DNA of 64,000 nt from an uncultured Nitrososphaerota archaeon (GCA_963799845.1 CAWCYI010000004.1:448001-512000); one strand, 5' to 3'; numbered from the stretch's first letter, positions 38,038 through 64,000 are shown. Notes: generated by a model not told the origin, from the letters alone. Translations and numbers: made by a program.

Positions 38038-39983
38038 TCAGGATTTTCTTTCGTACCTACGGAATATTTCTTGCAATCGAGGATCTGTCCTAGCTTTTGT
38101 TGCCATTGGCGAATACTTCAGGACTGAAATGGAAATCGTGTGATTCTCACCCGCCCTCCTCATTGCTTCAAAGAAATTATCGAGGTCTCCGAGAGCGCAG
38201 TAAATCAACCCAATGCCATTGATTGCCACGAAACCCTCCTCAGAAGATTTCTGAAGAACCTTGATCATTTGGATTGCTTTTTCTCGCTGGCCTTCGACGG
38301 CAGCCAGATACCCCTCCCAAAAATCATTTTCCTGATTAGCTGGATTTAGCTTTCGCAGAGTCTGTATTATGCTCCGGGCTTTCTCGTAATCTTCTTTGTA
38401 GATGTAGTAATCCATCATGCTGTCATAGGTCATGTATGGAGCAAACTTCAGTGCAGTTTCCCAAATTTCCAGTGCCTCAGATTCCCTGCCCGACCAAAAA
38501 TACTCGTCCCCGAGGCTTGTCATATTCCATGGCTCGAGTGGATCGAGCTGGTAGGCTTTCTCCCTCAGCCTCACAGATTCGTCGAGATCCCCTCCAACCA
38601 TCATGACACCCGCGAGGTTGGAGTAGGCGTCCGCTAGGTTTGGGTTGATTTCGATTGCCCGTCGGGCCTCCTTCTCGGAAGCGTTCATGTTGTCCTCCAT
38701 CTGCTCAACTGTCGAGAGCGCCGAATGTGCCTCGGCTAGCATATCGTTGATTGCAAGCGCCTTTCGAAGTAATGCTCTGGAGTTATCGATCGCCTGTTGG
38801 AAAGGAATATGGGCGTACATTGCGAGAGAATAATAGCATCCCGCCTGCCCCACATACGCTCTGGCAAACTTTGGATCTCTCTGGATCGCCTTCTCAAACA
38901 GATTGAGAGCATCCCTCAAGGCACTTTCAGCCGTTTCGTGCGATAATTGCTTCGCTTGGAGAAAATACGTGTAAGCTACAATATCTTCAGTGTCCTTTTC
39001 TTCATGCGAAACAGGTCGCACATTCAGACCGAGGCTGGTTGCGATCGATCCAGTCACGTTCTGGGCTATGTCGTCCTGAATCGCGAATATGTCGTCCAGA
39101 TCTTTATCATATCTCGAAGACCACAGGCGACTTTCAGATTTTACATCGATGAGAAAGACAGTGGCTCGGATCTTGTTTCCGACCTTTCTGACGCTTCCTT
39201 CGATGACGGTTCCGACCTGGAGCTCCCTCCCTATTTCCGAAATCTTCTTGTCTTTGTTTTTGTAGCTCATCGAAGACGTTCGCGCGATCACTTCGAGCGG
39301 TTTCACCTGCGACAGCCGATCAATCAGCTCCTCAGTAAGACCGTCCGCGAGGTACCCGTCGTTTGCGTCCGGGCTCATGTTTGTGAACGGTAAAACTGCG
39401 ATTCGTCTTCCTGTGTCGTGATCTAAGGACTGTGAACCATCCCGGTTCCAGGGCATCACCACTTTGTAGACTTCAATCGACTGGCTGATATTCTTCAATG
39501 ATACATTCCCCATGCTCTCGATTGGTACCCGGATCTTGTTTAGAATGAGATCGTAGACCTGGCGAGTCAGACAGATGCCATCGACCTCCGCAAGTTGTTG
39601 AATCCTCGACGCTATGTTAACGGCGTCTCCAAAGACATCGCCCCCCTTGTGAACGATATCTCCAACATGAATGCCGATTCGAAGTCGGATCTTCCATTCA
39701 TCCGCCGATGAGAGATTGTAGTCATGAAGAAACTCTTGAATCTCCATTGCACACTGCGTCGTGTCGAGAGCGCTTTCAAATTCGACGAGAAAAGAGTCTC
39801 CAATCGTTTTGATTTCCCTACCTCTTTGCTTCTGGAAAAACGGCCTCATGAGTTTGTTGTGTCTTTCAAGCACCCTGAGTGCCTGATCTTCGTCTGACTG
39901 GGCGAGAGCGGTATATCCCACAATATCCGTAAACATTATGCAAGCAAGAGATCTTCGGCTCGCACCGAGATCGGATCACTCAT
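38038..39983 (-). CDS. Class III adenylate cyclase - TolB-N-like - TPR protein
   Basis: FTDIVG, KTIGD, DVFGDAVNIASR; RIAVLPFTNMSPD...DGLTEE; TPRs. Start near 39983 needs a frameshift; in-frame ATG at 39936. Confidence 0.9.
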
Positions 39984-40361
39984 TGGCTTCCTAATATCAA
40001 AGAGACTAATCTTTATGATTAATCTCCGCACCGATTCATTGTTGTAACAATGGTAGAGGACGTTAGAGAGTTGGGAACAATAGTTCTATGCTTTTTACGC
40101 AATCTTGTAGAGAATGACTAATGAAGAAAGGTGCCACAGATCTCGCGGGAAAAGGGTTGGCAAACTTATAGAATTTGTCCTGGTCACGTCTGGGCGACGA
40201 GCACATGTTGAATCGTGTTTTTTTGGCTTCGGCGAAAGATCTCCTTTCATTTTGCCAAATCTTTACAAATAGGCTCCGGATTCTTCTCGAAAAATAAGCC
40301 TCTACAGATTCTATCTGGATTATAATTGGACGCAGGAATGGAACTTAACGATTGGGTGAAG

Positions 40362-40476
40362 CGCCCAGGCCGGGATTTGAACCCGGGTCGCGAGAGTGAC
40401 ACTTGAGGCTACCGATATAGCAGTCTCACATACTAACCTATTTTTACGACCGCGAACGTCTCTATACTACCTGGGC
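40362..40476 (-). tRNA. tRNA-Asp(GTC) with two introns: 40442-40461 (15/16) and 40402-40422 (32/33)
   Basis: Acceptor GCCCAGG/CCTGGGC; T-arm CCGGG-TTCAAAT-CCCGG; spliced anticodon arm TGAGA-CTGTCAC-TCTCG; BHB helix TGAG/CTCA. Confidence 0.87.
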
Positions 40477-41580: not shown

Positions 41581-41581
41581 C

Positions 41582-43385: not shown

Positions 43386-44331
43386 TTGAAAATTGTAGTT
43401 ATGGGCAGCGGGGGTCTTGGTGGATACTTCGGCTTCCGTCTCGCGCGTGCTGGCAATGAGGTTCATTTCATAGCACGTGGAGAGCGCCTCGACGCGATGC
43501 GCAAAAACGGGTTGCGTTTGATCACCAGCGATGAAGATTCCACTATTCAGGTTAAGGCATCCGAGAACCCCAAAGATGCTGGAGCTGCCGAACTCGTCTT
43601 ATTCTGCGTCAAAACCTATGACACAATCAGCGCAACAAAATCGATTTTGCCCATTTTGGAACGCAGCAGCACCGTTCTTACTCTTCAAAACGGCATCGAA
43701 AATTTCGATCAGATTCTCGGATGTAGTTGGGACGGATCGAGTTGTTCCCGGGACTGCTCTTATAGGAAGTGAGGTTCAGGCTCCCGGCGTAATACATGTA
43801 ATGACTCAGATAAGAAAAGTCGTATTCGGAGAAATTACCGGACAAAAGACTGCAAGGGCTGAAAGAATTAATGATGTGTTCAGATCAGCCGGTATTGACT
43901 CGGAAATCACGAGCGAAATTTCCAAACTTCTCTGGCAAAAGATGGTATGGTTTTGTGGTTTCGCCGGAATGTGTTCTATCATTCGGTTGCCTGTGGGAAA
44001 ACTCATGTCTTACCCCGAAACCCGGGAAATGTTCAAACAGATCATGGAAGAAGTCGATGAAGTGGCAAAAGCCAAAGGGGTTGATGTCGGACGCGATTAT
44101 ATTCAGAATCGAATAGATTTCGCAGATCATTTGGAAAAGAATGGAACACCTTCGATGATGCGTGATCTCTTGGCAGGACGAAAGCTCGAACTCGACGCTC
44201 TAAACGGGACTGTGATTAGAATGGGAAAGGAACAAGGGATTGCGACGCCGATGAACTGGGCAGTTTACAGTGCACTGAAACCGTACGTGACGCCCCGCGT
44301 AGCTTCTGTTGGCGGAATAGGAGAGGACTGA
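43386..44331 (+). CDS. panE: 2-dehydropantoate 2-reductase (frameshift near 43720)
   Basis: MKIVVMGSGGLGG, VKTYD, LQNG, WQK, PSMMRDLLAGRKLELD. Confidence 0.9.
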
Positions 44332-44441
44332 ACTTACTGGTGGATTTCTAGTCAAAATCAAGTTCAATTTCCAACCTTTCAAACGATGTAAAATCATAAT
44401 AGCGCGCGCGCGCGTTTCGCCGTCAAGCCGCGCTCTTTGAT

Positions 44442-46787
44442 TTGGACGACCCTCAATCCTCCGCATCTCCCACTGGCGAGCAAGCAGCTGTTAGTCTAGT
44501 TCGCGAATTACACAAGATCGAACTTTCAAATTATCGAGTCGTCGGCGGAATTGTAAGATACGACGAGTCCGCGAGAAATATTCTCAAGGATACAAAGCAG
44601 CGGATAGTCACAAGTCTAACTTCACAGACTCGAGGCCGAGACAACTACCTCATCTGGGCACCACCGGGCAGCGGCAAAAGTTTCTTTGTTCAGGAGATAG
44701 CAAAATCTCTCGGCGATAAAATAGACTACACTGAACTGAACCTAGCGCAGCTGGATGAGCAGAAGTTCAGAAGCGAACTTTCTAAGATCGAGAAATCCAA
44801 TAAGCCCCGCTTGTGCTTCATGGACGAAGTAGACTCCAAATCGTCTGAAGCGTGGCCGTACGAAGCTCTCCTCCCATATCTTGAACCGCCTGATAGGAAC
44901 ACCATCAGGACATGCTTCATCCTTGCTGGCAGTAGTGGTAATTCCCTTTCGGAGATGAAGGAGAGGATTGCCAAACGTCCAAAGGGAGTTGATCTCTTGA
45001 GTCGAATACCGGCTCGCAATGAATCAGCTATTCCGGGATTAGCTTTGGGCGACAGGATCCTTGTCGCATCAACCCAATTCTTGCGAGCTTCAAGCGAAAA
45101 GGGACGGCAGACCGATGAAGTCGAAAAGCTGGTGCTCTACTATATCGCTCTTAATCCAAAATTGAACAGCGCACGTCAAATCCGAGACCTTGCAATTCAT
45201 TGTATCGAACGCATGCCCAGAGGCGAAGAAAGGATCAAGTTCGATTATCTTTTCGATGCCGGAGACTCTGAGAACAAGGAATTTTGGAACACTGCGGGGA
45301 CGCTGAGAAACGAATTTGTCAACACGTTTGTAAGATTAGAAGACGATCAAGCTGTTTTCAAAGGCTCAAGCCCACAGCAAGGGATTTCGAGATTTGATGA
45401 GAAACGTGTGTTCGAAACGCCCCTAGAGAAAAACCGTATCGCAGTTCTGCCGTTTGCCAACATCAGTCCAGATCCCAAAGACGAGTATTTTGCGGACGGG
45501 ATGACTGAGGAAATAATCTCAACGCTCTCAAAAATACGTGGACTGAAAGTCATCTCCCGTACTTCAGTCTTGAGGTACAAACAAACTAACAAGAGTCTCT
45601 CAGAAATCGCAAGAGAACTGAATGTTGGCGCTATACTGGAAGGGAGTGTCAGGAAGGCGGCAGATGAGTTGCGAATTACAGCGCAGTTGATCGACGTGGA
45701 TAATGACGAGCATCTGTGGTCTCAAGATTATGACAGAAAATTCGAGAATGTGTTTTCACTGCAGAAAGAGATCGCGCAAAAAGTCGCTGATTCTCTCCAG
45801 ATTACAATTCTATCCAAAGAGAGCAAGGAGTTAGGAAAGAAACCAACCCAGAATATGGAAGCATACAGTCTTTACTTGAAAGGTCGCTCTCACCGGCACC
45901 GATGGAATCTTGATTCTTTCAAAAGAACAATAGATTATTGTGAGCAGGCTATTCAAAAAGACCCAAATTACGCCCAAGCCTACGCTGAGATTGCCAATTG
46001 TTACTCCATCATTGGTGTCAGAGAACTGCTCCCATCGAATGAGGCTTTCGCAGGCCGAGAAGTTTGCTGAAAAGGCAATCCAATTGGATCCTTCCCTTCC
46101 GGAATCTTATCTCGCACGCGGTCTGGTTCTGCTTTTACACAAATGGGATTTCCGACGTGCGGAAATAGAAATCAGAGGATCTCTTGAATTTAATCCTAGC
46201 CTGGTTGATGGTCATTTATATCTCGCGCAGCTGCTGGTGTGGAGCAGAAGATTTGGCGAAGCCGTTTTGGAAAGCAAACGCGCTTTGGAACTGGATCCGA
46301 TGTCAGCATGGACATGCTCATGGGCAGGCGAGATGCTTCTGTTTTCTCACCAAATTGACGAAGCTATAGAATTGTCGAGAAATGCCATCGAACTAGATCC
46401 GAAGTCGGCTTTGGCGCGACACAATTTGGGCCTTGCTTATGTTATGAAAGGAATGATCGAGAAAGGAATTTCTGAACTCAAAAAGCTAGAAGCCACGCCT
46501 TTCTCGCCTACGCCTATGGCAAAGCTGGAAAGATCAATGAAGTGAAGAACATTCTCGCAGACCTGTTCAGGATGAGGGAAAAAGGCTACAGGTCAGAAGT
46601 AGCAATTGCTGCAGCCTACTTGGGTTTAGGTGAAAAGGACAAGTCCATAGAGTGGTTAGAGAGGGCTTACGAGCAGCACGTGGGTCATTTTCCTGATGTG
46701 AACGCTCAGCCCATTTTCGACGACCTTCGCTCTGATCCAAGGTTTCAGGCTCTGATGAAGAAGATTGGATTTCCAGACGCAGTCTGA
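44442..46787 (+). CDS. AAA+ ATPase - TolB-N-like - TPR protein, copy A (frameshifts near 46050 and 46500)
   Basis: WAPPGSGKS, CFMDEVD, DLLSRI, SARQIR; RIAVLPFANISPDPKDEYFADGMTEE; TPRs; DLRSDPRFQAL end. Confidence 0.85.
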
Positions 46788-46901
46788 TACTAAATTGATT
46801 TTTCGAAAGGAATTTGCACAGAATTAGTTGGAATGCCAGATTATATCCTGGTCGTTCAATCCCAACATTGCCATCTTGCAATATATGAAATGGCTACTTT
46901 T

Positions 46902-47936
46902 TCAGCGAAAGTGTCGTGCGTGAACCCTCCGATCCTTCGTTCTTTCGCTGAATGTCTCGAAGCCGAGTTTGGCCGCCCCAAGCAGGCAAACGTCCGGATT
47001 CAGCACGAGGTAGACCGGGATGTCCGTCAGAAGTTCGCTCTGGCGCCCTTTCCTCGTTAGTGCCTCCACAAACTTCCCGTCCTCCAGCACGGGTCTGATT
47101 CGCGCGGGGATTCCCCCAGCAATGTAGACGCCGTTAGTCGCGAAGACTTTCAACGCGAGGTTGCTCGCTTCGGCTCCCATTATCGCCACAAACGTGTCGA
47201 GGGACTTTTCGCACAACTCGCAGCGCACTCCACCGAGCGCGGCCTTGACGATGATCGGGACCGGGTCGTCAGCCCCGGTTATCATTCTTGAAAGTTCAGC
47301 GTGTCGCTCTCGCGCGTCCACGATTTTGTGGTAGAATGTGTGAATCTCTTTTAGCCCGGGTCCCGAGCACACCCGTTCGTAACTAACGTGGTCAAGCTTT
47401 TGTTGCATGTACTTCAAAAGCTCAATTTGGACCGTGTCCCTAGGTGCGAAGTCGCAGTGCCCTCCCTCGGAGGCGAACGCGCGATACTTTTTTCCATCCC
47501 AGGTTAGGAAGGCTTCCCCGAGTCCCGTTCCCGGGGCAATCACCGCAATAGTCCCGCGTTGAACCGGCTTGCCCTCGTTGAGGACTAGATAGTCCACCTT
47601 CGGATTCAGAAAAGGTATAAACGAAGCCGTGGCGACCAAATCGTTGACCAGCAGCACGGAAGAAATTCCAAGGACGCGTCTGATCTGCCTTTCGCTTATC
47701 ACCCAGGGCAAATTGGTTATCGAAGATTTTCCCCCGATGACGGGGCCTGCAACGGCGAAGCACGCCTGGTCGATCGAGTACTTGTTTTTGGACAGGAACT
47801 CGAAAAGGAGAGATTCGATGTCTTCGAACTTTGGGCTGGAGAATGTCTTTTGCGCCAGTGGTTTGCGCAAGTTTCGCTTCGATGAAAAAACGGCGATGGA
47901 AGTCTTCGTTCCGCCCACGTCTCCCGCCAAGATCAT
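46902..47936 (-). CDS. glk: Glucokinase (bacterial type)
   Basis: LAGDVGGT, AVAGP, LVND, PGTGLGEA, SEGGH, YERVCSG. Confidence 0.93.
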   Translation of the reverse strand: MILAGDVGGTKTSIAVFSSKRNLRKPLAQKTFSSPKFEDIESLLFEFLSKNKYSIDQACFAVAGPVIGGKSSITNLPWVISERQIRRVLGISSVLLVNDLVATASFIPFLNPKVDYLVLNEGKPVQRGTIAVIAPGTGLGEAFLTWDGKKYRAFASEGGHCDFAPRDTVQIELLKYMQQKLDHVSYERVCSGPGLKEIHTFYHKIVDARERHAELSRMITGADDPVPIIVKAALGGVRCELCEKSLDTFVAIMGAEASNLALKVFATNGVYIAGGIPARIRPVLEDGKFVEALTRKGRQSELLTDIPVYLVLNPDVCLLGAAKLGFETFSERTKDRRVHARHFR

Positions 47937-48045
47937 TTTCGAGTAACCATCCCTTCGACTTTTTACGTTGGGTAGTTCCCAGTTTGCGGAAATAATTTTT
48001 CGACGCCTCTTAGGACTGATTTGTTTTCAGTCCTCAATGTTGAGG

Positions 48046-48834
48046 TCATACATCTGCCTGGCCGACGACTTGCCGCATCGATTCCACGTACTTGTAATGG
48101 TCCTTTCTTTTGAGCTTCTCCGCCGCCGCTTCGTCGAGGAATGCAGTGACCCTTGGATGGAGTTGGAGCGCGCTCGCGGTTATTTCCGAAGTAATGGGCC
48201 CTTCCAAAGCCAGCCTTACCGCATCCGACTTTTCCACGCCGCTAGCGAGGAGAACGATGTGGCGTGACTCGAGGATCGTCCCGACCCCCATCGTGATCGC
48301 AAATCGCGGCACCTCGTCGAGACTCCTGAAGAACCTCGCGTTGTCGGAAATCGTTTCTTGGGCTAGCGTCTTGAGCCTCGTTCTTGATCCGAGCGATGAA
48401 CCGGGCTCGTTGAATGCGATGTGCCCGTCGCGCCCGATGCCAAGCAGCTGGATGTCTATCCCGCCGGCTTCTCTTATGGAGGCTTCGTACTCGGAGCAGG
48501 ACGCCTCGATGTCCTTTACGAGTCCCCCTGGGATGTGCACGTTTTTGGGATCGATGTTCACATGCCTGAGCAGATTTTCGTCCATGAAGTAACGGTAGCT
48601 CTGGGGATGGTCCGGCGCGAGGCCGTAGTACTCATCTAGGTTGAAAGTGCGCACTCCTGCAAAGTCGAGGCCTTCTTCCCTATGCATTCGCGCGAGCTCG
48701 CGGTATATCCCCAGCGGTGTGCTGCCGGTAGCGAGGCCGAGGACGGAGTCGGGCTTCCGTCTTAATTGGGCTGCGATGAGCTTAGCCGCAGCGTTACTCA
48801 TTTCAAAGTAGCTCGGCGCGATCCGGACTCTCAA
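48046..48834 (-). CDS. nagB: Glucosamine-6-phosphate deaminase
   Basis: LGLATGSTP, FNLDEY, GIGRDGHIAFNEPG, ASALQLH. Confidence 0.95.
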   Translation of the reverse strand: MRVRIAPSYFEMSNAAAKLIAAQLRRKPDSVLGLATGSTPLGIYRELARMHREEGLDFAGVRTFNLDEYYGLAPDHPQSYRYFMDENLLRHVNIDPKNVHIPGGLVKDIEASCSEYEASIREAGGIDIQLLGIGRDGHIAFNEPGSSLGSRTRLKTLAQETISDNARFFRSLDEVPRFAITMGVGTILESRHIVLLASGVEKSDAVRLALEGPITSEITASALQLHPRVTAFLDEAAAEKLKRKDHYKYVESMRQVVGQADV

Positions 48835-53572: not shown

Positions 53573-53866
53573 TTATTTCAGCTCTACGATGAGGGCTCTT
53601 CCAGTCGTTCCCATGCTTTCAACAGAATGAGATTCCGCATCGTACCAAGCTATCTCTCCCTTCTTCATACTCCGACTCTGAGCCTTACCGCCTGGCGGTG
53701 TAGACTTGTATTTTAGCGGGGTAATAGCATACGCGAAATATTTTGGATGGGAGTGCATATCGATTTTCAAGCCCTTCTTCCAGTTGAGTTCGATCACCCG
53801 AACGTTATCATTCTCTAGGAGTACTTTCGAATATTTGGACGCTGCTTTGTGAACATCTTGTGACAT
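53573..53866 (-). CDS. Small cupin-like protein
   Basis: KVLLENDNVRV, MHSHP, SHSVE, IVELK. Confidence 0.75.
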   Translation of the reverse strand: MSQDVHKAASKYSKVLLENDNVRVIELNWKKGLKIDMHSHPKYFAYAITPLKYKSTPPGGKAQSRSMKKGEIAWYDAESHSVESMGTTGRALIVELK

Positions 53867-53930
53867 GTGTTTGGGAATCAGGCTGGGGCGATATAAGCCC
53901 TATCATTGTTTCAAAACGCGTAGTTATGGC

Positions 53931-56306
53931 CTATTGGCCCGTCACATACTGAGAAATCTCGGAAATGAATTGAGACTTTGCTCGACTAGATGTAAAGAGG
54001 TAGAGTTCCTTCTTGCACCTGGTTAGGGCAACGTAAAACAGCCGCCTTTCCTCTTCAAGTTTGTCCACCTTCTCATCCTGACTCTTTCTGGCAATTTCGA
54101 GTAACTTTTCTCCTTTGATCTCCGATGGAAATCCAAACTCTCCCTTGATGCAACCTAGAAGCAACACATACTCCGCTTCTCGTCCCTTTGACCGATGAGT
54201 CGTCAGGAACTCCAAGTCAATCTCCTCACTATTTGGAAACTCGACAGCAAGCCGATTCAGCTGATCACGATACCTAGAAAGAACTAGGATTCTCTCGCCA
54301 GAAGCTCTCTTGAGGAGTAATCGGTTTAGCAGATCCTTCACAGCATTTAATTCCCAATTTTGGTACTCCTTTGAAGTAAGATTTTCTGGCATCTTCACCA
54401 AAACAATCTGACAAGATAGATTGGACTTCGCTGTAACATCCTTTCGCATTTGGAATCTGTTGAGTGAAATCAGATGGTTAGAAGCCTCCACTACGTTCTT
54501 TGGGCACCTATAATTCGTTCCGATGAAGCTTTTCTCGGGAAAGGCGAAGTGACTATCAAAATTCAAAATGTTCTGAATATTTGATCCAGCAAACGAGAAG
54601 ATGTTCTGCCAATCATCACCAACGCAGAATAGATGAGAGTCCTTACCTCCAACGATGCACTTGATCAACTCAAGCTGATTGTCTGTAATATCTTGAAACT
54701 CATCTATCAGGACATATGGGTACTTGTGTGCTAGGTCTTCCCTGTTCTTTCTTGCGACCTCAAGTGCGAGAATAATCATGTCGTTGAAGTCGATCGCATC
54801 TTTTAATTTCAGTTGCGATTCGTATTCTTCCCACACAGGAATGACGAAAGAGAGAAATGCTTTCTGTCGTCTGTTCAATTTCATTGTTTCTTCCCTTCGG
54901 GAAATATCTTCGATTCTGAAGCCGTTTGACTTTGCCGTACTGATGAACGAGAATGTCAATATTTCAAGCGGATCATTTTTTGGAAGAAGGCTGTACACTT
55001 TACTCACCACTTCATTCGTGTTGAGCTCGCTTAACACAACTCCATGTTCTTCGAGTAACTTTTTCAAATCTCGAAGGAGCGTTCCCTCAATCCATTGATA
55101 ATGGAACGTCTCAATCAGTGAATGTTTATGCTTCGCAAACTGCCCCCGTGACCACTCCATGCGCCTCTGGTATCGTTCCGATGGATCTTCAGAATTATCC
55201 TTGTCACCATATGCAAACCATTCAGGTACTTTTCCCTCTCTGTCAACCCCTCGATGCTCAATCCAGACATCATAGTCTAAAAGGTGAAAATCAGGAGCAT
55301 AAGTTCGATAATTTTTATTCATGTCTGCCCAAGTGACAGGATCGGCATGCTTGAATTGAACTTGATTGATAAAGAGAAAATTTGCGATGTCACGCTCCGC
55401 GACGGAATCGACACGTTCTGAACTGAGAGTCGTATATCTTTGGTTCCTCACGTACTCGTAGTACTTTTGTGGATCTGGAAAGCTCTCTGCTTCTAGCTCG
55501 TCGTTTTGGTACTCTATTGCAAACTGGAGCATTGACAGAACGAAATCGCGGTTGCTGGATAGTTGTTTGAGAGAAGTACGAATGATTTCATGTTGATCAC
55601 CCTCTTTAGCCACACCATTTCTGAATTTGTGAGAATCTTTTGCGAGCTCTCGCCCAAAAGAATGGAGTGTCCTGATGTTAAAGCCAGAAATTCCATACTT
55701 ATTCGAGAGACGTTCCTGCATTTCACTTGCAGCCACTGTAGTGTATGCTAGAGCTAGAATGTTGTTCGGTGGAATTCCTCTTTCGACTAGGAATGCAAGT
55801 CGTGCAGTCAAAACTCTTGTCTTTCCAGAGCCCGCCGCACCAACAACTAGGCTGTGGGCGTCGTCTTTCACCACTGGTTCAATCTGCTGCGGATCCAGAG
55901 AAGCTTTTGAAAAGAAATCGGCGTGCGTTGCTGTCATCATCTTGACGTAATTCTTCATGTAAGATTGTAAAAAAGAAATGAGCGACTCGATCCTTTTCGT
56001 AGATGAGAGGGCCAATTGTTTTTCCTTTTTTGAAAGGAGTAGACGAAAAATTAGAGCATGACTGGCGTGGTCTGCCATCTCTTTCAAGGATTTCCGAACA
56101 TCTAATCGCATCTTTCCATTCAGATATTGATTGAACGAGAGATAATCGGTTAGCTCTAAGTTAAGCTGGTCAAGTTCTCCAGCGATGTTCTTTACCGATT
56201 TTGCAAGTCTTAATCTGAATACGACGATCCCGACAAGAACGAATACGGCGATTAGGAATGAAACGATAAGAATTATTCCTGTTGAGCTCGAAAATGGAGG
56301 GTCCAA
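53931..56306 (-). CDS. UvrD-family helicase (helicase IV-like) with N-terminal TM and nuclease-like insert
   Basis: GAAGSGKT, LIDEFQD, VGDDWQNIF, NYRC, THRSKGRE, EERRLFYVALTR. Confidence 0.9.
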   Translation of the reverse strand: MDPPFSSSTGIILIVSFLIAVFVLVGIVVFRLRLAKSVKNIAGELDQLNLELTDYLSFNQYLNGKMRLDVRKSLKEMADHASHALIFRLLLSKKEKQLALSSTKRIESLISFLQSYMKNYVKMMTATHADFFSKASLDPQQIEPVVKDDAHSLVVGAAGSGKTRVLTARLAFLVERGIPPNNILALAYTTVAASEMQERLSNKYGISGFNIRTLHSFGRELAKDSHKFRNGVAKEGDQHEIIRTSLKQLSSNRDFVLSMLQFAIEYQNDELEAESFPDPQKYYEYVRNQRYTTLSSERVDSVAERDIANFLFINQVQFKHADPVTWADMNKNYRTYAPDFHLLDYDVWIEHRGVDREGKVPEWFAYGDKDNSEDPSERYQRRMEWSRGQFAKHKHSLIETFHYQWIEGTLLRDLKKLLEEHGVVLSELNTNEVVSKVYSLLPKNDPLEILTFSFISTAKSNGFRIEDISRREETMKLNRRQKAFLSFVIPVWEEYESQLKLKDAIDFNDMIILALEVARKNREDLAHKYPYVLIDEFQDITDNQLELIKCIVGGKDSHLFCVGDDWQNIFSFAGSNIQNILNFDSHFAFPEKSFIGTNYRCPKNVVEASNHLISLNRFQMRKDVTAKSNLSCQIVLVKMPENLTSKEYQNWELNAVKDLLNRLLLKRASGERILVLSRYRDQLNRLAVEFPNSEEIDLEFLTTHRSKGREAEYVLLLGCIKGEFGFPSEIKGEKLLEIARKSQDEKVDKLEEERRLFYVALTRCKKELYLFTSSRAKSQFISEISQYVTGQ

Positions 56307-56486
56307 AGACGAATTTTATGCAATTTCCTGTAGATACTTTAAGGTGCTCAGTGCGAGGATAATACAAACATAGTCAGTCAGAAAGACCCCCAGAGTGAAA
56401 AGAAGAATTTCCGCTCAGTGCTTTACTTTCATGACACATTCTACAGTCTAAAAGCTTTTGAATTGAACCCATATGGTCAACAATGA

Positions 56487-56912
56487 ATGACCAGGGCTGA
56501 AGATGTAATCAATAGGGTTGTGGAGTTTGCAAACAAGCATGACCTCGATTCCTCGGTTGCATTATTTGACCCTGACGTCATCTGTTGGAATCCCATCAGT
56601 CAAGAGATCAAGGGGAGAGAAGCTCGTCGAAAAGTTATCGAAATAGCACTCAAGGCAATTCCCGATCTACAATGGCAAATTAAAACTGTATTAGTTCAAG
56701 GCGACTCGGCAGTTTTCGAAGCTTTGGAGTCAGGTACATTCACTGGCCTTCTTGAATTGCCAAATGGAAATATTCAGCCTACGAAAAAGTCGTATAGACT
56801 ACCATTCATCGCATTCTTGCGAATAAACAATGTTGGCCTAATCGTAGAGTATCGTAATTATTGGGATAATCTTTCCTTTATCCGTCAGCTTGGTATTGAG
56901 CTTAGAGCATAA
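56487..56912 (+). CDS. SnoaL/NTF2-like ester cyclase family protein
   Basis: KAIPDL, GTFTG, IVEYRNYWD...QLG. Confidence 0.85.
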   Translation: MTRAEDVINRVVEFANKHDLDSSVALFDPDVICWNPISQEIKGREARRKVIEIALKAIPDLQWQIKTVLVQGDSAVFEALESGTFTGLLELPNGNIQPTKKSYRLPFIAFLRINNVGLIVEYRNYWDNLSFIRQLGIELRA

Positions 56913-57095
56913 CGAACTTGAGGAAGCGGTCAGAGACCAAAAAAAAGTTAGATTCTAGAACGCTGGTCATCCATTGGGTCAGGAAAAATCCTGAGAAGAA
57001 AACTCTAGAGCAAAAACTCGATTCTGCGAGTATCCAAGCAAATACAACAATGAGAAGGACCAACCTGCTTTATCCTTTTTTCGAGAATTTGCTAA

Positions 57096-57861
57096 TTGCC
57101 TGGAAATAAGATCAAAACTGGTTGCACTGGTTGGAGTTACGAAGATTGGGTCGGTCCCTTCTATCCTCTCGGATCAAAACCAACTGAATACTTGCCCTTC
57201 TATTCTAGTGTCTTCGACATTGTCGAGATTGACACTACTTTCTACTCGAGTCCCAATGAGTGGCTGGTCAATCGCTGGATGGAGGTGACTCCCCCGAATT
57301 TTTCATTCACGGCCAAGATCCCGCAGACAATAACGCACGAAAGAAGATTCAGAGCCTACGACACGGAACTGTCAAACTTTCTCTCCGCTTTGCAACCACT
57401 GCGCCCCAAGTTGAAATGTATACTCGCTCAGATGCCTCCGTCTTTCAACTACAGAGATGATTTCGAAGCGCTAGCCGAATTTGTCAATGACGACAAGAAA
57501 ACGCGCGGAGATGTCAGGCTCGCAGTCGAGCTGAAGAAATACTTCGTTTTTCAGAGACGAGACGTTCGACCTTCTCTGGGAAAACGGGGTGTGCTTTGTG
57601 TGGTCTGCCAATCAGTACACGCGTGACTTTCTCGCCAGGGTCACGGCGGACTTTCTCTATGTGAGGTTCATTGGCGACAGACAGCTCACGAAATTCGATA
57701 GAATCCAGTTGAACAGAACAGTGTTACTCGAGGAATGCTGGAGGAGATTGAGCTCAGCACTTGACTCTGTGAATGAGGCTTTCGTATTTTCAAACAATCA
57801 TTTCGCGGGCTTTGCCCCTGACACCATAAGGGAGTTTAGGAAGATCGCGAATCTTGAGTAA
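57096..57861 (+). CDS. DUF72 family protein (frameshift near 57535)
   Basis: GCTGWSYEDWVGPFYP, VEIDTTFY, QMPPSF, LYVRFIG, FSNNHFAGFAP. Confidence 0.9.
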
Positions 57862-58015
57862 GTTAACCAGGCGGCTCGGTAATTTGAAACGGATATTCTT
57901 GCTCAGTTCTGTGGCGAGATGACAGCTGAAACTGATCCTTATGACGAGAATGATGAATCCTTTTTCTGTGCTGCCTTAGGAGATTCTAAAAAACCAAGAA
58001 GCTGGTTTTCTATTC

Positions 58016-60403
58016 TTAGCTATTTTTGAGCCCTATTCGCTTTAGTAACTTTTCGAATCGCTCGTCAGAGCGAATATTATCAAGCGGGAGACCTCCCCTA
58101 ACAATTATGTACATATACGTAGATCTTTCCGTGTATGCTCTTTCTAACCATTCGAACGCTTTGTCTTTATCACCGAGCCCAGAAAAAGCACATGCCCAGG
58201 TGAACGCGCTAACATGTGGATAGTTGTTGCTGTCCTGCAGTTCCTCGACAATCTTCCTTGCTTCGGTAACTCGGCCTGCTTTTGTTAGTGCATACGCAAG
58301 ATCTAATTGGTTATACGCGTCCTTCCCCTGGCTGAGTTCGATAGCCTTCTGAATTTCTACAATTCCTTCACTAAGCATTCCTTTTTGCACATACGTTAAT
58401 CCAAGATTATCATGTGCATTTGCGACAGCAGGATCTAGACTTATTGCTTTCTTGAATTGTTCTATTGCCTCGTCGTAATGGCCAGCATACATTAGCGCGC
58501 TCGCTGCCACAGTCAGAGTTACTGTTGACAAGGGATCCAATTCTAGAGACCTCTTGATCTCTGTAAATGCTTCGGGAAATTTACTTTCATCGCCGTGGTA
58601 GATCGTCCAGATTGCATGATAGACATATGCCCTAGCAAAACTCGGGTTCAGCTCAATAGACCGACGGAATTCATATTCAGCGCCGTCGAAATCCCAGTCA
58701 TAATTCAGATGTATCTGAGCCATCGACAGATGAGCGTCAGCCAGCATATTGTCGATTTCTAATGCTCTGGCAGCGAATTGCTTTGCTTTCAGTCCTGCTT
58801 CATCTCTCGTTATATAACTCCAGGCACCTAAGTACCAATAAGAGTCAGCGAGCCCGACAAAGGCCAAAGAGAAGAACGAATCTTGTTCTATAGCTAGTTG
58901 GAAGTATTCTATTGCAGTTTCAAATTCCTTTCCAGCAAGTTTGTTGAAATGGAACCTTCCTTTGAGATATAGAGTGTATGCTTCCTGGCTTTTTGTCGGG
59001 ATCTTTTCGAGGCTTTCTTCCTCTTTCGGCAAAAGTTTGACTTTCAGGGCTTTTGCAACGCTTGTTGAAATTTCGCTTTGGATTGCGAATACGTCCTGAA
59101 GCTCTCTGTCATAGGTTTCTGACCAAAGGTGTTCATCTGCCTTCGAATCTATCAATTGAACAGTGATTCTCAACCTGTTCCCAACTTTTCGAACACTTCC
59201 TTCAAGCAAATTCTCAGCCTGTAATTCCTGTCCAATCTCTGTAGTATTCTTGCTCGTTGCCTTATACCGCATAATCGAAGTTCTTGAAATTACTCTCAGT
59301 CCATGTATCTTCGATATTGAAGAGATCAGCTCCTCCGTCATTCCGTCTGCGAAGTACTCATCTTTAGGATCAGGGCTGATGTTTGCGAACGGTAGAACTG
59401 CGATGCGGTTTTTTCCATAGGTGGTTTCTTTGCTCGTGCGGTTTTCTTCGATTCTAGATGTTTCCCGTTTCGCACTTGAGCCACTGAGCACGACTTGATC
59501 GTCTTCCAACCTTACAAACGAGTTCACAAATTCGTTTCTTAGCGATCCCGCTCTAACCCAAAATTCCTTGTTCTCAGGATTACCAGCATCAAAGAGATAA
59601 TCGAATTTGATTCGCTCTTCGCCTGCGGGCATCCTTTCAATACAACGGACAGCGAGCTGACGAATCTGACGTGCGCTCTTTAGTTTGGGATTTAGTGCCA
59701 CGTAATATAGCACAAGTTTTTCGACTTCATCGATCTGACGGCCATACTCCCTTGCTGCGCTCAAGAATTGAGTTGAAACGACTAGAAGTCTATCACCCAG
59801 ACCAAGACCTTCTATCACGAATTCGTTGTCTGGTGGGATCCTACTCAGGAGGTCTATTCCCTTAGGGCGCTTCGCAATATTGTCTTTCATGCCATCAAGA
59901 GAATTTCCAGAGCTACCTGCGAGAATGAAGCAAGTGCGTACTGTTCTTCGGTTGATGGGTGGCTCAAGCGAAGGAAGGAGAGCTTCGTACGGCCATGATT
60001 CCGTTGGTTTCGAATCCACTTCGTCGATGAAGCACAGACGAGGTTTATCCAGTCTGTCTATTTCGAGTACCTCTCTTCGGAAATCTTGTTCGCTCATTTG
60101 AGCCAAGTTAAGCTCCCGATAGAGAATATGATCGCCCATCGACCTCGCAATTTCTTGGATGAAAAATGACTTCCCGCTTCCAGGTGGTGCCCAAATCAGG
60201 TAATTATCACATCCAAAAGGTTGCGAGCTGAGGCTCGAAACGATTCTTTGTTTCGTATCTTTCATCGAATTTCTCGCGGGCTCGTCGTACCTTACAATTC
60301 CACCGACAACTCGGAATCTAGAAAGATCTAAAGTATCGAGTCCTCTGATTAAGGAAATGGCGTTTTGTTCCTCAGAATCGTAATGAGAACCTGAGGAGTT
60401 CAT
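58016..60403 (-). CDS. AAA+ ATPase - TolB-N-like - TPR protein, copy B (intact ORF)
   Basis: WAPPGSGKS, CFIDEVD, DLLSRI, SARQIR; RIAVLPF hub; TPRs. Confidence 0.88.
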   Translation of the reverse strand: MNSSGSHYDSEEQNAISLIRGLDTLDLSRFRVVGGIVRYDEPARNSMKDTKQRIVSSLSSQPFGCDNYLIWAPPGSGKSFFIQEIARSMGDHILYRELNLAQMSEQDFRREVLEIDRLDKPRLCFIDEVDSKPTESWPYEALLPSLEPPINRRTVRTCFILAGSSGNSLDGMKDNIAKRPKGIDLLSRIPPDNEFVIEGLGLGDRLLVVSTQFLSAAREYGRQIDEVEKLVLYYVALNPKLKSARQIRQLAVRCIERMPAGEERIKFDYLFDAGNPENKEFWVRAGSLRNEFVNSFVRLEDDQVVLSGSSAKRETSRIEENRTSKETTYGKNRIAVLPFANISPDPKDEYFADGMTEELISSISKIHGLRVISRTSIMRYKATSKNTTEIGQELQAENLLEGSVRKVGNRLRITVQLIDSKADEHLWSETYDRELQDVFAIQSEISTSVAKALKVKLLPKEEESLEKIPTKSQEAYTLYLKGRFHFNKLAGKEFETAIEYFQLAIEQDSFFSLAFVGLADSYWYLGAWSYITRDEAGLKAKQFAARALEIDNMLADAHLSMAQIHLNYDWDFDGAEYEFRRSIELNPSFARAYVYHAIWTIYHGDESKFPEAFTEIKRSLELDPLSTVTLTVAASALMYAGHYDEAIEQFKKAISLDPAVANAHDNLGLTYVQKGMLSEGIVEIQKAIELSQGKDAYNQLDLAYALTKAGRVTEARKIVEELQDSNNYPHVSAFTWACAFSGLGDKDKAFEWLERAYTERSTYMYIIVRGGLPLDNIRSDERFEKLLKRIGLKNS

Positions 60404-60476
60404 TTCGACAATAGTCCTGAAATAATTTGATTAATATGGCTTAATTTGCATCATTACCCAGCCTTTTCCGATCTTA

Positions 60477-61712
60477 TCATGAATGCTGAGTTTTCGAGTC
60501 TTCTGATTTAGTAGGGAGACCTAGTTTCACCGCTCGATTCGGTGCTAAGAAGAAGAGTATTGGAAGCAGAACAATCGCGGTCACGCCAGTCAATGTAAAT
60601 GCAAAAGTGTATCCTTGCGTCACCGAAACAATTCCAAATAATATTGTAAAGCCGCTGGTAAAGACCAGTTGAACCGAATTTATGACCCCGATTCCTAGTG
60701 TTACTGATTCACTCTTGCTTTCTTCGAGATACGCGGGTATCATGAACATAACTGAACTTGCGACTCCGTAAAGGAATCCAGCTATTGCGTATAATCCCCA
60801 CAAGAATAATACCTCCAGATGCGGTAGAAGGAGGTAGCACAATCCGATGAGAAACGTGAACAACGCCAGGATCGTCCTTCTATCGTAGCCTCTCTCACCG
60901 ACCCAACCTCCAATTATGCCGCCAGGTATGGTGAAGAAGAGGCCTAATCCTAGGATTTCAGCTGCCGTGTCGATGCCCCAGAGTGGATGGACTTGACTAA
61001 AGTATTGGGCGAGGAAATCGGAGCCGATGTATCCACCCGCTGCGAAACCAGCAAGACCAAGAGAGATAGCCCATATCGATTTCGAGCCAAGGACCCGACG
61101 AGCCTGCGACCAAACAACTGATGACAAATCGTGTTGTTCGTTAACTTTGTTGGCGGGAAGAATTACTAGACTCAGGATGGTTGTCACAAGAATTATTCCC
61201 CCGCTAAGTTGAAACGGCGCACCCCAACCATATGCCAGACCTAGAACTGCGCCAGCTAAAAGGCCTACGATTCCGCCAGCGCCGTTTGTGATCCCGAAAA
61301 AAATTCCGATCAGTTTCCCCTTTTGTCCCTCGGAGTAGTACGAGGAGAGCAGACTGTAAGCCGAGCCACTGGACAAGGCTGCGCCCGCTCCCGTTACAAA
61401 CCGCAGAAGAGCGAGTTCTAGAATGTTGATAGAGTATCCAGATAGGAGAGTGGTTGCTCCCATTAAACCGAGTCCAACTAGATAGATCTCTTTGGTTCCC
61501 CACTTTATAGCTCCGAATCCAGATGGAATCTGGAATATCCCAAATCCCCCTAGAAAAGCTCCCAACATGAGCCCAAGCTGAGAAGTATTCACTTTGTACG
61601 CCTCACCGATCAACGGAACTATAGGGGCGATCTCGACGGAAACAAACGTGACTAAAGCTCCGCCGAGTATGAGGACTGCCGCGGACAATGCGCGACGATT
61701 GGAGAGAGTCAA
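60477..61712 (-). CDS. MFS transporter
   Basis: About 12 TMs; LLRFVTGAGAA; GGWVGERGYDRR. Confidence 0.9.
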   Translation of the reverse strand: MTLSNRRALSAAVLILGGALVTFVSVEIAPIVPLIGEAYKVNTSQLGLMLGAFLGGFGIFQIPSGFGAIKWGTKEIYLVGLGLMGATTLLSGYSINILELALLRFVTGAGAALSSGSAYSLLSSYYSEGQKGKLIGIFFGITNGAGGIVGLLAGAVLGLAYGWGAPFQLSGGIILVTTILSLVILPANKVNEQHDLSSVVWSQARRVLGSKSIWAISLGLAGFAAGGYIGSDFLAQYFSQVHPLWGIDTAAEILGLGLFFTIPGGIIGGWVGERGYDRRTILALFTFLIGLCYLLLPHLEVLFLWGLYAIAGFLYGVASSVMFMIPAYLEESKSESVTLGIGVINSVQLVFTSGFTILFGIVSVTQGYTFAFTLTGVTAIVLLPILFFLAPNRAVKLGLPTKSEDSKTQHS

Positions 61713-61763
61713 TACAACCCATCAAGAGCTAAAATATTCAATGACGGCCTTTTTCACAACTAA

Positions 61764-64000
61764 TCATTCTGCATCGGGAAAACCAATTTTCTTCAGCAAT
61801 GCCTGAAACCTTGGATCTGACCGAAAGTCCTCGAAAGCAGGATCGCTATTGATACTCGGAAGAGAGCTAAGATGATACTCATAAGCTCTCTCCAGCCACT
61901 CCATTGCCTTGTCCTTTTCACCTAAGCTCACGTAAACTCCAGCAATAGCTGCTTCTGACCTGTAGCCTTGTTCCTTCATTCTCAGCAAATCGGCAAGAAT
62001 GTTCTTCGCTTCATCGATTTTTCCAGCTTTTGCGTACGCCCAAGCAAGATTGCTTATTTTTGTCACATCTTCCCACCAGACATTTCTATGCCTATTTTGA
62101 TTTCAGAAATTCCTTCCTCAATCATTCCCTTCATGATGTATGCACAGCCCAGAACGTCATGCGCTAAAGCAGAATTCGGGTCTAGCTCGATAGCATTTCT
62201 GAACAAAACTATTGCTTCGTCAATTCGGCGAGATTGCAAAAGATAGCCACCTGCCATTGTGCACGTCCAAGCTGACAGCGGATCTCAGCTCCAAAGCGCG
62301 GTGGCATTCCAAAATGGCTTCGTCAAATCTCCTGCTAAACACGAGAACCTCTGCGAGATCGATGTGACCATCCACCGAGCTGGGATTAAGTTCGAGCGCT
62401 CGTCTCAATTCGATTTCAGCAGCTCGAAGATCCCATTTTTCTGCAAGTAAGAGCCATCCTAGCGCAAGGTGAGATTCAGGAAGGGACGGATCCAATTGGG
62501 TTGCTTTATCAGCAAACATCTTCGCTTGTGGCAGGGCTTCATTCGATGGCAGAAATTCAAACCAACTAAAGGCAGTGTAACATTTGGCCATCACCGAATA
62601 GGCTTGAGCGTAGTTCGGATCTTTCTGAATTGCTTGTTCGCAGTAAAATATCGTTCTTTTGAGGGAATCAAAAGTCAGTCGATGCATGTAAGATCGGCCC
62701 TTCAAGTATAGAGTATAAGCTTCCAGGTTCAGCGTTGGTCTCTTTCCTAATTCTTTGCTCTGCTTCGCGAGAATTGTAATCTGAAGAGAATCAGCGACCT
62801 TTTGGGCGATCTCCGCTTGCAGTGAAAACACGTTCTCGCATTTTCTATTATAATCTTGAGACCACAAATGCTCGTCGTTTTCCACATCAATTAGTTGCGC
62901 CGTAATTCGCAGATCGTCGCCTGCTTTCCTGACACTTCCTTCCAATACCGCCCCAACATTCAGTTCCTTGGCGATTTCGGAGAGATGCTTGTTCGTTTGC
63001 TTATAGCCCAAAACAGAAGTACGGGAGATGACTCTTAGCCCTCGAATTTTAGATAACGTAGAAATTAGTTCCTCGGTCATGCCATCCGCAAAGTACTCGT
63101 CCTTAGGATCAGGGCTGATATTTGCGAAGGGCAGCACGGCGATACGATTTTTTCCGTAGGTTGTTTCTTTGGTTGCAAGCTTTTCGTCAATTCTAGAATT
63201 CTCCAGATTCATAGTTGAGGGTCTGAAAACGATTTGATCATCCTCTAATCTTACAAACGTGTTGACAAACTCGTTTCTCAATTGACCTGTTCTGGTCCAA
63301 AACTCCTTGTTTTCGAGATCGCCCGCATCGAAAAGATAATCGAACTTTATTCTCTCTTCTCCCTTGGGCATGCGCTCGATACATCGAACAGCTCAGCTGT
63401 CGAATTTGACGGGCACTTTTCAGTCGGGGATTCGAAGCTACGTAGTAAAGCACCAATTTTTCGACTTCATCGATACGCCGTTCATGCTCAACTGCTGCAT
63501 TGAGAAATTGGGTGGAGACTACGAGAAGTCGATCCCCCAGTCCTAAACCCTCAATCACGAACTCGTTCCCTGGTGGAATCCTACTCAGAAGATCAGTACC
63601 TTTAGGGCGTTTTGTAATATTTTCATTCATACCTGCTAGAGAATTTCCAGAACTTCCTGCCAGAACGAAGCATGTTCGGACAGTTTTTCTATTTGCAGGT
63701 GGCTCAAGTGAAGGTAGAAGGGCCTCATACGGCCATGATTCACCTGGTTTGGAGTCCACTTCATCAATGAAGCACAGACGAGGTTTATCCAATTTTTCTA
63801 TTTCAAATAAAGCTCTGCGGAAATCTTGCTCACTCATCTGAGCCAAATTAAGCTCCCTGTAGAGAATATGGTCGCCCATAGACCTCGCAATTTCTTGGAT
63901 GAAAAATGACTTCCCGCTTCCAGGTGGTGCCCAAATCAGATAATTGTCGCATCCGAAGGGCTGCGAACTTAGACTGGAAACAATCCTTTGTTTTGTATCT
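61764..64000 (-). CDS. AAA+ ATPase - TolB-N-like - TPR protein, copy C (5' end outside window; about three frameshifts)
   Basis: Window end reads DTKQRIVSSLSSQPFGCDNYLIWAPPGSGKS; ORFs 63238-63879, 62220-63371, 62063-62257 and 61764-62066 join into one paralog. Confidence 0.85.

Follow-up and report, generated by a model that had tools for sequence, protein, structure and literature searches.

A predicted AAA+ ATPase cassette that replaces or accompanies class III adenylate cyclases on three protein chassis of archaea and bacteria

The cyclase/TolB-like/tetratricopeptide repeat (TPR) proteins, modeled by NCBIfam as TIGR04510 ("putative peptide modification system cyclase") and labeled "TolB-like protein / TadD" by JGI, place a class III adenylate cyclase in front of a TolB-like domain and TPRs. 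Cyclases of this class, which are active only as dimers, are also found in the cyclase-STAND-TPR proteins of actinobacteria (Rv0386 type; STAND, signal transduction ATPases with numerous domains) and in the LipJ-type alpha/beta hydrolase-cyclases (NF058673). CadC, a sensor of pH and cadaverine, has a periplasmic domain in which an alpha/beta subdomain is packed on a helical-repeat subdomain. Here we describe a 64,000-nucleotide stretch of DNA from an uncultured Nitrososphaerota archaeon (G000:C4:448001-512000; hereafter the window) that holds four related genes. One of them, together with 11 paralogues elsewhere in the same genome, shares the architecture of TIGR04510; the other three carry a predicted AAA+ ATPase cassette where the cyclase would be. 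We find that this cassette recurs in archaea and bacteria as a discrete module, and that it replaces or accompanies class III cyclases on three different chassis.

All four window genes encode the block RIAVLPF.N.SPD...Y.ADG.TEE followed by TPRs, as judged from translations and a motif scan, in agreement with the preliminary description of this DNA. The AAA motifs quoted there (APPGSGKS, CFIDE or CFMDE, F(I/V)LAGS, DLLSRI and SARQIR) likewise appear in the translations of all three copies. Chance resemblance is ruled out by the similarity of the paralogues to the single intact AAA copy, which ranges from 74 to 87% identity in the AAA part, from 54 to 92% in the TolB-N part and from 30 to 93% in the TPRs. 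The remaining gene does contain the class III cyclase domain attributed to it: PF00211 is matched with 74 bits (cut-off 21.9), residues 1-157 aligning to profile positions 12-179. Its translation shows FTD, IGD, a Lys before IGD, GDVFG and N-x3-R, which presumably represent the metal-binding Asp pair, the substrate Lys/Asp and the Asn/Arg residues of the cyclase.

The exchange of front domains extends to the whole genome (4.6 Mb in nine contigs, with an archaeal small-subunit rRNA (SSU) fragment present). A search of it with the intact 795-aa protein gives 46 matches, and a strict-motif scan recovers 22 TolB-N/TPR frames, 12 of them with a cyclase front, 6 with an AAA front and a few with no front domain. 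The cyclase fronts are 51-65% identical to the window cyclase. The proposal that one chassis carries interchangeable cyclase or AAA+ fronts is therefore borne out. We also surveyed 41 genomes, namely G000 and 40 relatives; the tallies take in G001, with 0 and 2 matches, a genome that enters no other result. The TolB-N chassis was found in 15 of the 41, including all 12 other genomes of the same family (1-25 matches each, versus ~31 in G000) and both genomes of one other family. With ~31 matches, this genome would hold an unusually large cytoplasmic sensing repertoire for its archaeal family. The AAA cassette was found in only five of the 41 genomes (G000, G004, G003, G007 and G037); G004 has nine matches, seven of them long, without stops and 70-86% identical. 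A different arrangement of the chassis is seen at G000:C6:962731-965688 (minus strand), where a 986-aa frame holds two tandem TolB-N/TPR units with neither a cyclase nor an AAA front.

To characterize the front domain, residues 1-330 of the 795-aa protein were modeled by AlphaFold2 (AF2) with 40 aligned relatives. The model (predicted local distance difference test, pLDDT, 91.3; predicted template-modeling score, pTM, 0.85) has an alpha-beta-alpha core followed by a helical lid. The top rows of a Foldseek search against the PDB are all AAA+ ATPases (best E 4e-9, query-normalized TM-score (TMq) 0.41-0.50, identity 13-18%), among them spastin, RuvB, MgsA, Lon, Msp1, Vps4 and clamp-loader gamma, and at least 500 matches reach E≤0.001. 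VIA-align places NtrC4 first (3dzd_B; Z 15.5, root-mean-square deviation (rmsd) 3.5, 215 residues aligned), and down to rank 50 (Z 13.1) every row is an AAA+ protein aligned over residues 31-280. Pfam PF00004 (AAA) also matches the 795-aa protein, with 24.0 bits against a cut-off of 21.2. Model and structure matches thus dispose of the concern, raised in the preliminary description, that the front domain might not fold as AAA+.

The residues expected of an active ATPase are retained. Among the 40 relatives, which are 30-73% identical to the query, G77, K78, D127 and E128 are invariant; K78 belongs to the Walker A motif (PPGSGKS), and D127 and E128 to Walker B (CFIDE). R188, R245, R257, W137, G163 and S164 are conserved in at least 90%. 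Of these, R188 (DLLSRI) and R245 (SARQIR) lie at the positions that the secondary structure predicts for an Arg finger and for sensor 2, and are candidates for these roles. The C-terminal piece of the cassette is specific to the family and ends in FV..ED.

Could the cassette be a conventional protein-remodeling AAA ATPase, an unfoldase or disaggregase to which the TolB-N/TPR part serves as substrate adaptor? The best sequence matches are indeed to classical AAA proteins, with a profile search of PDB sequences retrieving Cdc48/p97 and Vps4 (best E 4.6e-11) and PF00004 being the Pfam family matched; the leading Foldseek rows include spastin, Msp1, Lon and Vps4; and a conserved WPY motif follows Walker B, at what we take to be the pore-loop-2 position. 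However, this sequence similarity begins at Walker A and does not reach beyond Walker B (profile positions 163-226). Immediately relevant is the pore-loop-1 position, where the profile alignment with Cdc48 lacks seven residues and has NLAQMS instead, and where the model leaves just five residues between the strand and the next helix. The aromatic-hydrophobic-Gly motif of classical AAA unfoldases was not found at this position, and the missing loop argues against threading. Nor do the structure searches prefer the classical clade. No clade stands out in Foldseek or VIA-align, all lying within ~1.5 Z of one another, such that sigma-54 activators, Rix7, FtsH, ORC, RFC and ClpA share the range of Z 14.0-15.5 in VIA-align. 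We consider a remodeling function very unlikely. Sequence and model together identify the front part as AAA+, with a complete predicted catalytic set and without a threading loop. Beyond the generic AAA model, no family in Pfam, NCBIfam or PADLOC claims the cassette, and the ESM Atlas yields unnamed or generic "AAA" clusters only, the best of which (score 0.97) is represented by a 357-aa "hypothetical protein" of Chloroflexota.

The rear part was modeled separately. Residues 332-795 give an AF2 model (pLDDT 91.7, pTM 0.90) with an alpha/beta domain at model residues 2-121 and then ~20 helices. Besides generic TPR proteins, Foldseek retrieves the periplasmic sensor domain of CadC (3LY7, 3LY8, 3LY9 and 3LYA) across both parts, with E 4.9e-7 to 1.6e-6, a target-normalized TM-score (TMt) of 0.58-0.62 and an rmsd of 5.5-6.5 over ~350 columns. 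CadC also appears among the sub-cut-off NCBIfam matches of the chassis (26.6 bits, residues 348-508), along with HilA/EilA and TIGR04510, and the only Pfam match for the alpha/beta domain was to FlgO, just below its cut-off (19.9-20.8 bits versus 22.6) and in the two broken window copies. The name "TolB-like" derives from JGI labels on homologues. The intact copy closes with the TPR end-of-group domain NF047558 (54.5 bits, cut-off 32, residues 737-788). By analogy to a known sensor, the CadC-like fold supports the description of the rear part as a sensor chassis, an alpha/beta domain packed on a TPR solenoid. No membrane segment was found in either type of protein by Kyte-Doolittle analysis (19 residues, threshold 1.6): the maxima are 1.19 for the AAA protein and 1.29 for the cyclase protein, as opposed to 2.33 (MFS) and 3.44 for membrane-protein controls from the same window. 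Both proteins are therefore predicted to be cytoplasmic in their entirety.

To determine how widely the cassette is used, we searched 1.84 billion cluster representatives with residues 1-330. The search returned 460 representative clusters at E≤1e-3 (213 at E≤1e-30), and all 460 match query residues ~10-301, whichever end of the protein carries the module. Among 265 proteins compared, comprising the 150 best representatives and a further list rich in near-duplicates, the module is C-terminal in 165, N-terminal in 55, alone in 16, internal in 4 and partial in 25. The cassette is thus a discrete, mobile module that is placed at either end of its host protein. It is present in archaea of soil and sediment as well as in bacteria (Nitrososphaerales, Thermoplasmata, Bathyarchaeota, Chloroflexota, Deltaproteobacteria and Actinomycetota), and the closest relatives, at 74-83% identity, come from metagenome-assembled genomes (MAGs) of Nitrososphaerales. 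A related-loci search seeded with an eight-row alignment added 80 loci with 79 module-bearing proteins, including loci from Thermoplasmata and Gaiellaceae. TolB-N/AAA fusions themselves occur in archaea and bacteria alike, so that the family is not the archaeal speciality it had been taken for.

The partners of the cassette are diverse. In the 150 best representatives they form many unrelated clusters, of which the largest are a ~920-aa unannotated type (28), TolB-N/TPR (23), STAND+TPR (11) and alpha/beta hydrolase (5); a TolB-N probe matches 21 of these representatives and 12 of the 79 genome proteins. Pfam scans of 19 representatives and nine genome proteins reveal the architectures hydrolase+cassette, cassette+NACHT+FGE-sulfatase, cassette+nSTAND+TPR, PNP_UDP+cassette+NB-ARC+TPR, KaiC-like+cassette, methyltransferase+cassette, cassette+asparaginase and TPR+cassette. 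The fusions to STAND-type proteins (P0122, P0133, P0153, P0154, P0185, L045, L091 and L093) carry the STAND domain in addition to the cassette. In a FastTree phylogeny of 211 cassettes, the partner label requires 66 changes (minimum possible 6, shuffled mean 133), indicating that partners have been exchanged many times. Conversely, 28 of the 32 TolB-N forms fall within one starred clade of 42 rows, and most TolB-N fusions therefore appear to share one origin.

Two of the less familiar forms merit description. The largest partner class (P0256-like, 28 of 150) has an N-terminal region of ~920 aa in which Pfam recognizes nothing but a second P-loop (residues 241-323 in P0256). A 358-aa form recurs in Anaerolineales of the Chloroflexota (L056, L057, L069, L071 and others); it has a 75-residue N-terminal extension without a Pfam match, and in four loci a conserved 99-aa protein, also without a Pfam match, is encoded directly or nearly upstream.

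Cyclase and cassette meet on three chassis. The first is the TolB-N/TPR chassis, which has either domain in front in G000 and in its genus. The second is an alpha/beta hydrolase, present in 39 of the 79 module-bearing proteins from genome loci. These cassette-linked hydrolases share 26-42% identity with the hydrolase part of L052_03, a protein that joins a hydrolase to a cyclase; L052_03 and its relatives adjoin a cassette gene in five loci. The hydrolase nucleophile motif G.S.G occurs in 31 of 40 sequences, without placement in a conserved column. The third chassis combines STAND and TPRs, and is represented by cassette+STAND+TPR proteins (P0133, L045, L093 and L085), by cassette+cyclase+STAND in L091 (by BLAST also L089 and L092) and by cyclase+STAND+TPR+cassette in P0185. 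Still other proteins combine several of these elements, as in cyclase+hydrolase+cassette (L067) and cassette+hydrolase+cyclase+STAND+TPR (L048). Altogether, cyclase and cassette share one polypeptide in 3 of the 150 representatives and in 5 of the 79 genome proteins. Thus, on TolB-N/TPR, alpha/beta hydrolase and STAND+TPR chassis, the cassette replaces or accompanies a class III cyclase.

Such promiscuity might also be expected of a regulatory or adaptor domain that reads nucleotide state, or that mediates homotypic co-assembly of sensors and enzymes into mixed rings. The cassette is unusually well conserved, its archaeal and Chloroflexota versions being 43-52% identical, and yet it has freely varying partners; the label changes on the 211-row tree, numbering at least 66, fit this picture. 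It is found both on sensor-like partners (TPR, STAND, HEAT) and on enzymes (hydrolase, asparaginase, methyltransferase, PNP_UDP phosphorylase). Several architectures can coexist in one genome, as on the DATEGA01 contigs, which give L045, L048 and L060, or in a Nitrososphaerales MAG that has TolB-N/TPR forms together with the 351-aa form L021. That some proteins hold both cyclase and cassette is consistent with the same idea. However, the neighboring sensor/effector pairs that an adaptor domain should produce were seen in none of the 80 loci. The only locus with two adjacent cassette genes, L015, encodes two TolB-N/TPR proteins of the same kind, and G000 has TolB-N/TPR forms at all seven of its seven cassette places. 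A fully conserved catalytic set, moreover, exceeds what a passive adaptor would need. A regulatory or adaptor role therefore seems to us unlikely.

We favor, with a probability of about one half, the interpretation that the cassette is a sensor-gated, oligomerization-dependent ATPase output for signaling. The window proteins would be soluble cytoplasmic proteins of two parts, a rear sensor chassis and an exchangeable front output that is either a class III adenylate cyclase or the self-contained ~290-residue AAA+ cassette. On binding a ligand or a protein partner, the TolB-N/TPR part would change the oligomeric state. The AAA+ cassettes might then assemble, with R188 of one subunit completing the ATP site of its neighbor, and the ATP-bound or ATP-hydrolyzing assembly would act on a target or provide an assembly platform, presumably without threading a polypeptide. 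Cassette assembly would thereby parallel the dimerization that switches on the cyclase in the sister proteins. AAA+ ATPases, like class III cyclases, are active only in association with their own kind, in their case as oligomers with an Arg supplied in trans. The combination of a front part that depends on self-association with a rear part of the binding type suggests sensor-gated assembly. Four elements of this model are inferred: that a ligand is sensed, that oligomerization is gated, that ATP is hydrolyzed in trans and that there is a target.

Several observations weigh against a sensor-gated ATPase output. Four probes leave the partners of 112 of the 150 representatives unclassified and, given also the other partners found by Pfam, the description of the cassette as a stand-in for a cyclase fits only a minority of contexts. 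In proteins that contain both domains, the module could be a regulator and not a second output. Neighbor clustering reveals no neighbor that is conserved in more than 7 of the 80 loci, and hence no hint of a target. In G000, five of the seven cassette copies are broken as assembled, and two of these stay broken after read correction. Finally, one paralogue, copy F, reverses the conservation gradient that the others display. The objection from broken copies is weakened by the error-prone assembly and by G004, with its seven long stop-free matches.

A more far-reaching version of the signaling interpretation can be offered only tentatively. The cassette would be a prokaryote-wide signaling output, the ATPase counterpart of the class III cyclase, with assembly driven by diverse sensors. 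In that case the AAA-TolB-N-TPR proteins would act as receptors that form signalosomes and follow the logic of nucleotide-binding leucine-rich-repeat (NLR) receptors without a STAND domain, their variable TPRs each serving a different ligand.

It has also been proposed that the family serves in defense. As NLR-like immune sensors, the proteins would recognize invader proteins through their TPRs, and the cassette would oligomerize as, or recruit, a toxic effector (for example one that drains ATP), leading to abortive infection. Variable TPRs on a conserved ATPase would suit such a function, as would the tandem clusters of paralogues with several broken copies, which are reminiscent of fast-turnover receptor families, and the patchy occurrence of the cassette among the 41 genomes. 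In addition, the cassette is N-terminal on NACHT, NB-ARC and nSTAND proteins, one of which also has a PNP_UDP phosphorylase domain, a known effector in NLR-like immune systems. Nonetheless, PADLOC 2.0 matches the AAA protein to MkoA only, over 45 residues and without significance (13.6 bits, E 0.0037), and matches the cyclase protein weakly to PycC (20 bits, E 7.4e-5). No operon partner or defense island was seen in the window or in the 80 related loci. Recurrent neighbors in those loci include malic enzyme, an ABC ATPase, a metallo-beta-lactamase-fold protein, a halogenase and the hydrolase-cyclase, all but the last being metabolic or transport genes. The sister proteins built on this chassis, which is present in all 12 other genomes of the family, are class III cyclases of the ordinary kind, and signaling fits this pattern better. 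With a 13.6-bit match and no neighbor that recurs in more than a few loci, the proposed defense role finds no support here, and we regard an immune function as distinctly unlikely.

The neighbors in the window are also housekeeping genes, with one exception. Pfam identifies a PrsW protease, an SprT-like protein, a C-terminal piece of PanE, a glucokinase, CitMHS and MFS transporters, and SnoaL and DUF72 proteins, and a sugar-phosphate deaminase at 48046-48834 was recognized from its translation alone. The exception, 1.7 kb away, is a 791-aa UvrD-like helicase (53931-56306, minus strand) with an N-terminal membrane segment (Kyte-Doolittle maximum 3.44, residue 11), for which PADLOC returns two strong hits, a DRT-associated helicase (E 8.7e-55) and GajB (E 3.7e-53). 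The helicase gene lies within a stretch of lower G+C content, 0.43-0.44 between 52 and 58 kb.

The coordinates of the four genes and their domains are collected in Table 1. As regards the three AAA genes, their domains and motifs are as had been described, and not all of their gene models are: among them, the 795-aa gene has the sole intact frame in the window.

Table 1. Location of the AAA+ and cyclase genes and their domains in the window.
Feature	Coordinates	Strand	Basis
AAA+/TolB-N-like/TPR gene, intact, 795 aa	58016..60403	-	One open frame; Pfam AAA and TPR families
Predicted AAA+ cassette, residues ~10-303	59495..60376	-	AF2 model, VIA-align Z, conserved columns, match range of homologues
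TolB-N-like alpha/beta domain, residues ~333-453, begins RIAVLPF.N.SPD	59045..59407	-	AF2 model, CadC match
TPR solenoid and TPR end-of-group domain, residues ~459-795	58019..59029	-	Pfam TPR, NF047558, all-helical model, Foldseek TPR matches
Copy A, AAA+/TolB-N/TPR paralogue, disrupted	44442..46788	+	Frame map, indel table, contig records
Copy B, AAA+/TolB-N/TPR paralogue, passes window end to ~64107	61764..64000	-	Frame map, contigs
Class III cyclase/TolB-N-like/TPR gene, 632 aa from first in-frame ATG	38038..39936	-	PF00211
Problem at 5' end of cyclase gene	39937..39983	-	Sequence, stop-to-stop frame 38041-39975, comparison with paralogues

To distinguish genuine lesions from assembly errors, contigs from four Illumina-type soil-metagenome runs of one study, the best-matching of which may be the source sample, were aligned to window positions 44400-64000. 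This interval covers the window parts of copies A and B. In these 19.6 kb, the window differs from the Illumina-derived contigs by four single-base insertions or deletions (indels), at 46479, 57533, 62286 and 63394. Three of the four places coincide with frame changes in the paralogues, and we therefore attribute the indels to errors in the window assembly. Every one of them lies within a few bases of an AGCT, which looks like a systematic error of long-read assembly; our guess is that a methylated motif is behind it. Given such errors, apparent frameshifts elsewhere in G000 need read support.

Each of the two disrupted copies retains a single frameshift after correction. As assembled, copy A changes frame at ~46046-46051 and again near 46485-46503. 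The second shift is an assembly error, an A being missing after 46479 in comparison with the Illumina contigs, such that the frameshift at ~46050 is left, with segments of 555 and 284 aa in two frames. Copy B, which as assembled occupies at least three frames, has assembly errors at 62286 and 63394 and is left with a frameshift in a GGG run at ~62060, where the frame changes between a 711-aa segment and the 112-aa segment that follows it. The window sequence is matched by contigs at ~46050 (X1 record 1 and X2 record 10) and by one contig at ~62060 (X4 record 31, covering 62005-62170 without gaps, at a depth of only 2.9). The explanation that all broken copies are assembly artefacts was rejected for these two sites, where the Illumina contigs match the window. 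Because the downstream frame in both copies is still open and homologous, either the lesions arose recently or these are split genes. One contig of run X2 tracks the window as far as 46051, exactly where copy A shifts frame, and its following 255 bases are of a different sequence; this may reflect a junction between paralogues, a variant with a deletion or a chimeric assembly.

A start of the cyclase gene at 39983 had been assumed; in the assembled sequence, the ATG there does not share the frame of the cyclase. That frame stays open upstream to 39975, where it resembles the conserved first strand of the paralogues (..RRSLACIMFTD, compared with ..RRLAAIMFTD.. in the paralogues). Within this frame up to 39975, there is no in-frame start codon upstream of the Met at 39936, which itself falls within the conserved AIMFTD strand. 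A frame break exactly at Met 39936 was considered and rejected, as the frame runs on upstream and matches the paralogues. The missing start codon could be due to an assembly error.

Other window genes show comparable irregularities. The match of the DUF72 gene (57096-57626, plus strand) covers positions 1-140 only of the 217 in the profile; the gene stops near the error at 57533, and so is probably cut by that error and no real pseudogene. An open reading frame (ORF) at 43531-44331 (plus strand) encodes only the C-terminal domain of a ketopantoate reductase, at residues 130-251, and is overlapped in a different frame by an ORF at 43386-43772. The whole span of 43386-44331 (plus strand) may be a further frameshifted gene or a further assembly error.

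The seven places of the AAA module in G000 all lie on contig C4 and form three clusters (492-512, 1242-1249 and 1993-1999 kb), copies C, D and E being those at 1242-1249 and 1993-1996 kb; the motif region is lost in the seventh copy. Only C4:506019-508403 and C4:1996228-1998582 are intact as assembled. The other five are interrupted by a TAG or by frameshifts, or lack residues 156-365. Relative to the intact window copy, five of the six paralogues display a gradient, identity falling from 74-85% in the AAA part through 54-64% in TolB-N to 30-40% in the TPRs. For these five, the statement that variable TPRs accompany a conserved ATPase is correct. It does not apply to copy F (C4:1996228-1998582), in which the AAA part is 86.7%, TolB-N 92.3% and the TPR part 93.0% identical to the intact copy, a reversal that suggests exchange of segments between copies through gene conversion or a mosaic origin.

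Overall, the idea of interchangeable outputs on one chassis emerges strengthened from this analysis, the archaeal and defense aspects of the preliminary description find no support, and two of its three AAA genes prove to be damaged. As that description had suspected, no described AAA+-TolB-TPR fusion was found in a literature search or in four family libraries. The same sources gave no description of the cassette itself. The three passages of PMC8195603 that mention AAA+ deal with MoxR, with a Clp-like ATPase and with how STAND originated, and not with the cassette. Homologues are currently annotated as "alpha/beta fold hydrolase", "tetratricopeptide repeat protein" or "TolB-like protein", after their partner domains only, which renders the cassette invisible to annotation-based surveys. 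In our view it represents a new family of AAA+ proteins, found in a set of architectures that is likewise new. The action of a signaling protein is set by its output domains, and the known prokaryotic outputs (DNA-binding domains, kinases, cyclases, GGDEF/EAL and sigma-54 AAA+ domains) have seen little growth. A compact AAA+ cassette with a full predicted catalytic set, which changes protein ends and partners and repeatedly substitutes for a cyclase, would add a new output or switch element to them.

Comparison with described systems helps to define this element. The resemblance to CadC is confined to the rear part and to fold, with 12-15% identity only. Unlike CadC, the window proteins have no membrane segment and are predicted to be cytoplasmic, their TPR solenoid is much longer and is followed by a TPR end domain, and their output is a cyclase or putative ATPase, as opposed to the winged-helix DNA-binding domain of CadC. 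STAND and NLR NTPases with TPR sensors would follow the same logic, a repeat sensor joined to an oligomerizing NTPase, and are frequent fusion partners of the cassette. Nevertheless, the window protein lacks a STAND domain: Pfam gives no NACHT or NB-ARC match in the 795-aa protein, and AAA_22 stays below its cut-off (17.2 versus 27 bits). In the fusions, the cassette is an extra domain beside STAND and no variant of it.

The sigma-54 activators (NtrC4, NtrX, DmpR, FleQ and NifA) carry AAA+ outputs whose ring assembly is gated by a fused sensor, and we propose them as a working analogue. They reach the highest Z values in VIA-align (14.4-15.5), although their lead over other clades is less than one Z unit and amounts to a tie. 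The cassette is not a member of this group, as identity is 12-21% and the translations contain no GAFTGA-type loop. Archaea are not known to have sigma-54.

The LipJ-type hydrolase-cyclases constitute the second chassis on which cyclase and cassette alternate. None is present in the window or the genome, the window cyclase scoring 67.1 bits against the cut-off of 800 for NF058673, over the cyclase part only. The cyclase/TolB-like/TPR proteins have the same rear chassis and the same domain order. The window proteins are not members of the TIGR04510 equivalog, with 59.3 bits for the AAA gene and 77.5 bits for the cyclase gene against a cut-off of 400. The distinguishing feature of the AAA forms is that a predicted ATPase cassette stands in place of the cyclase.

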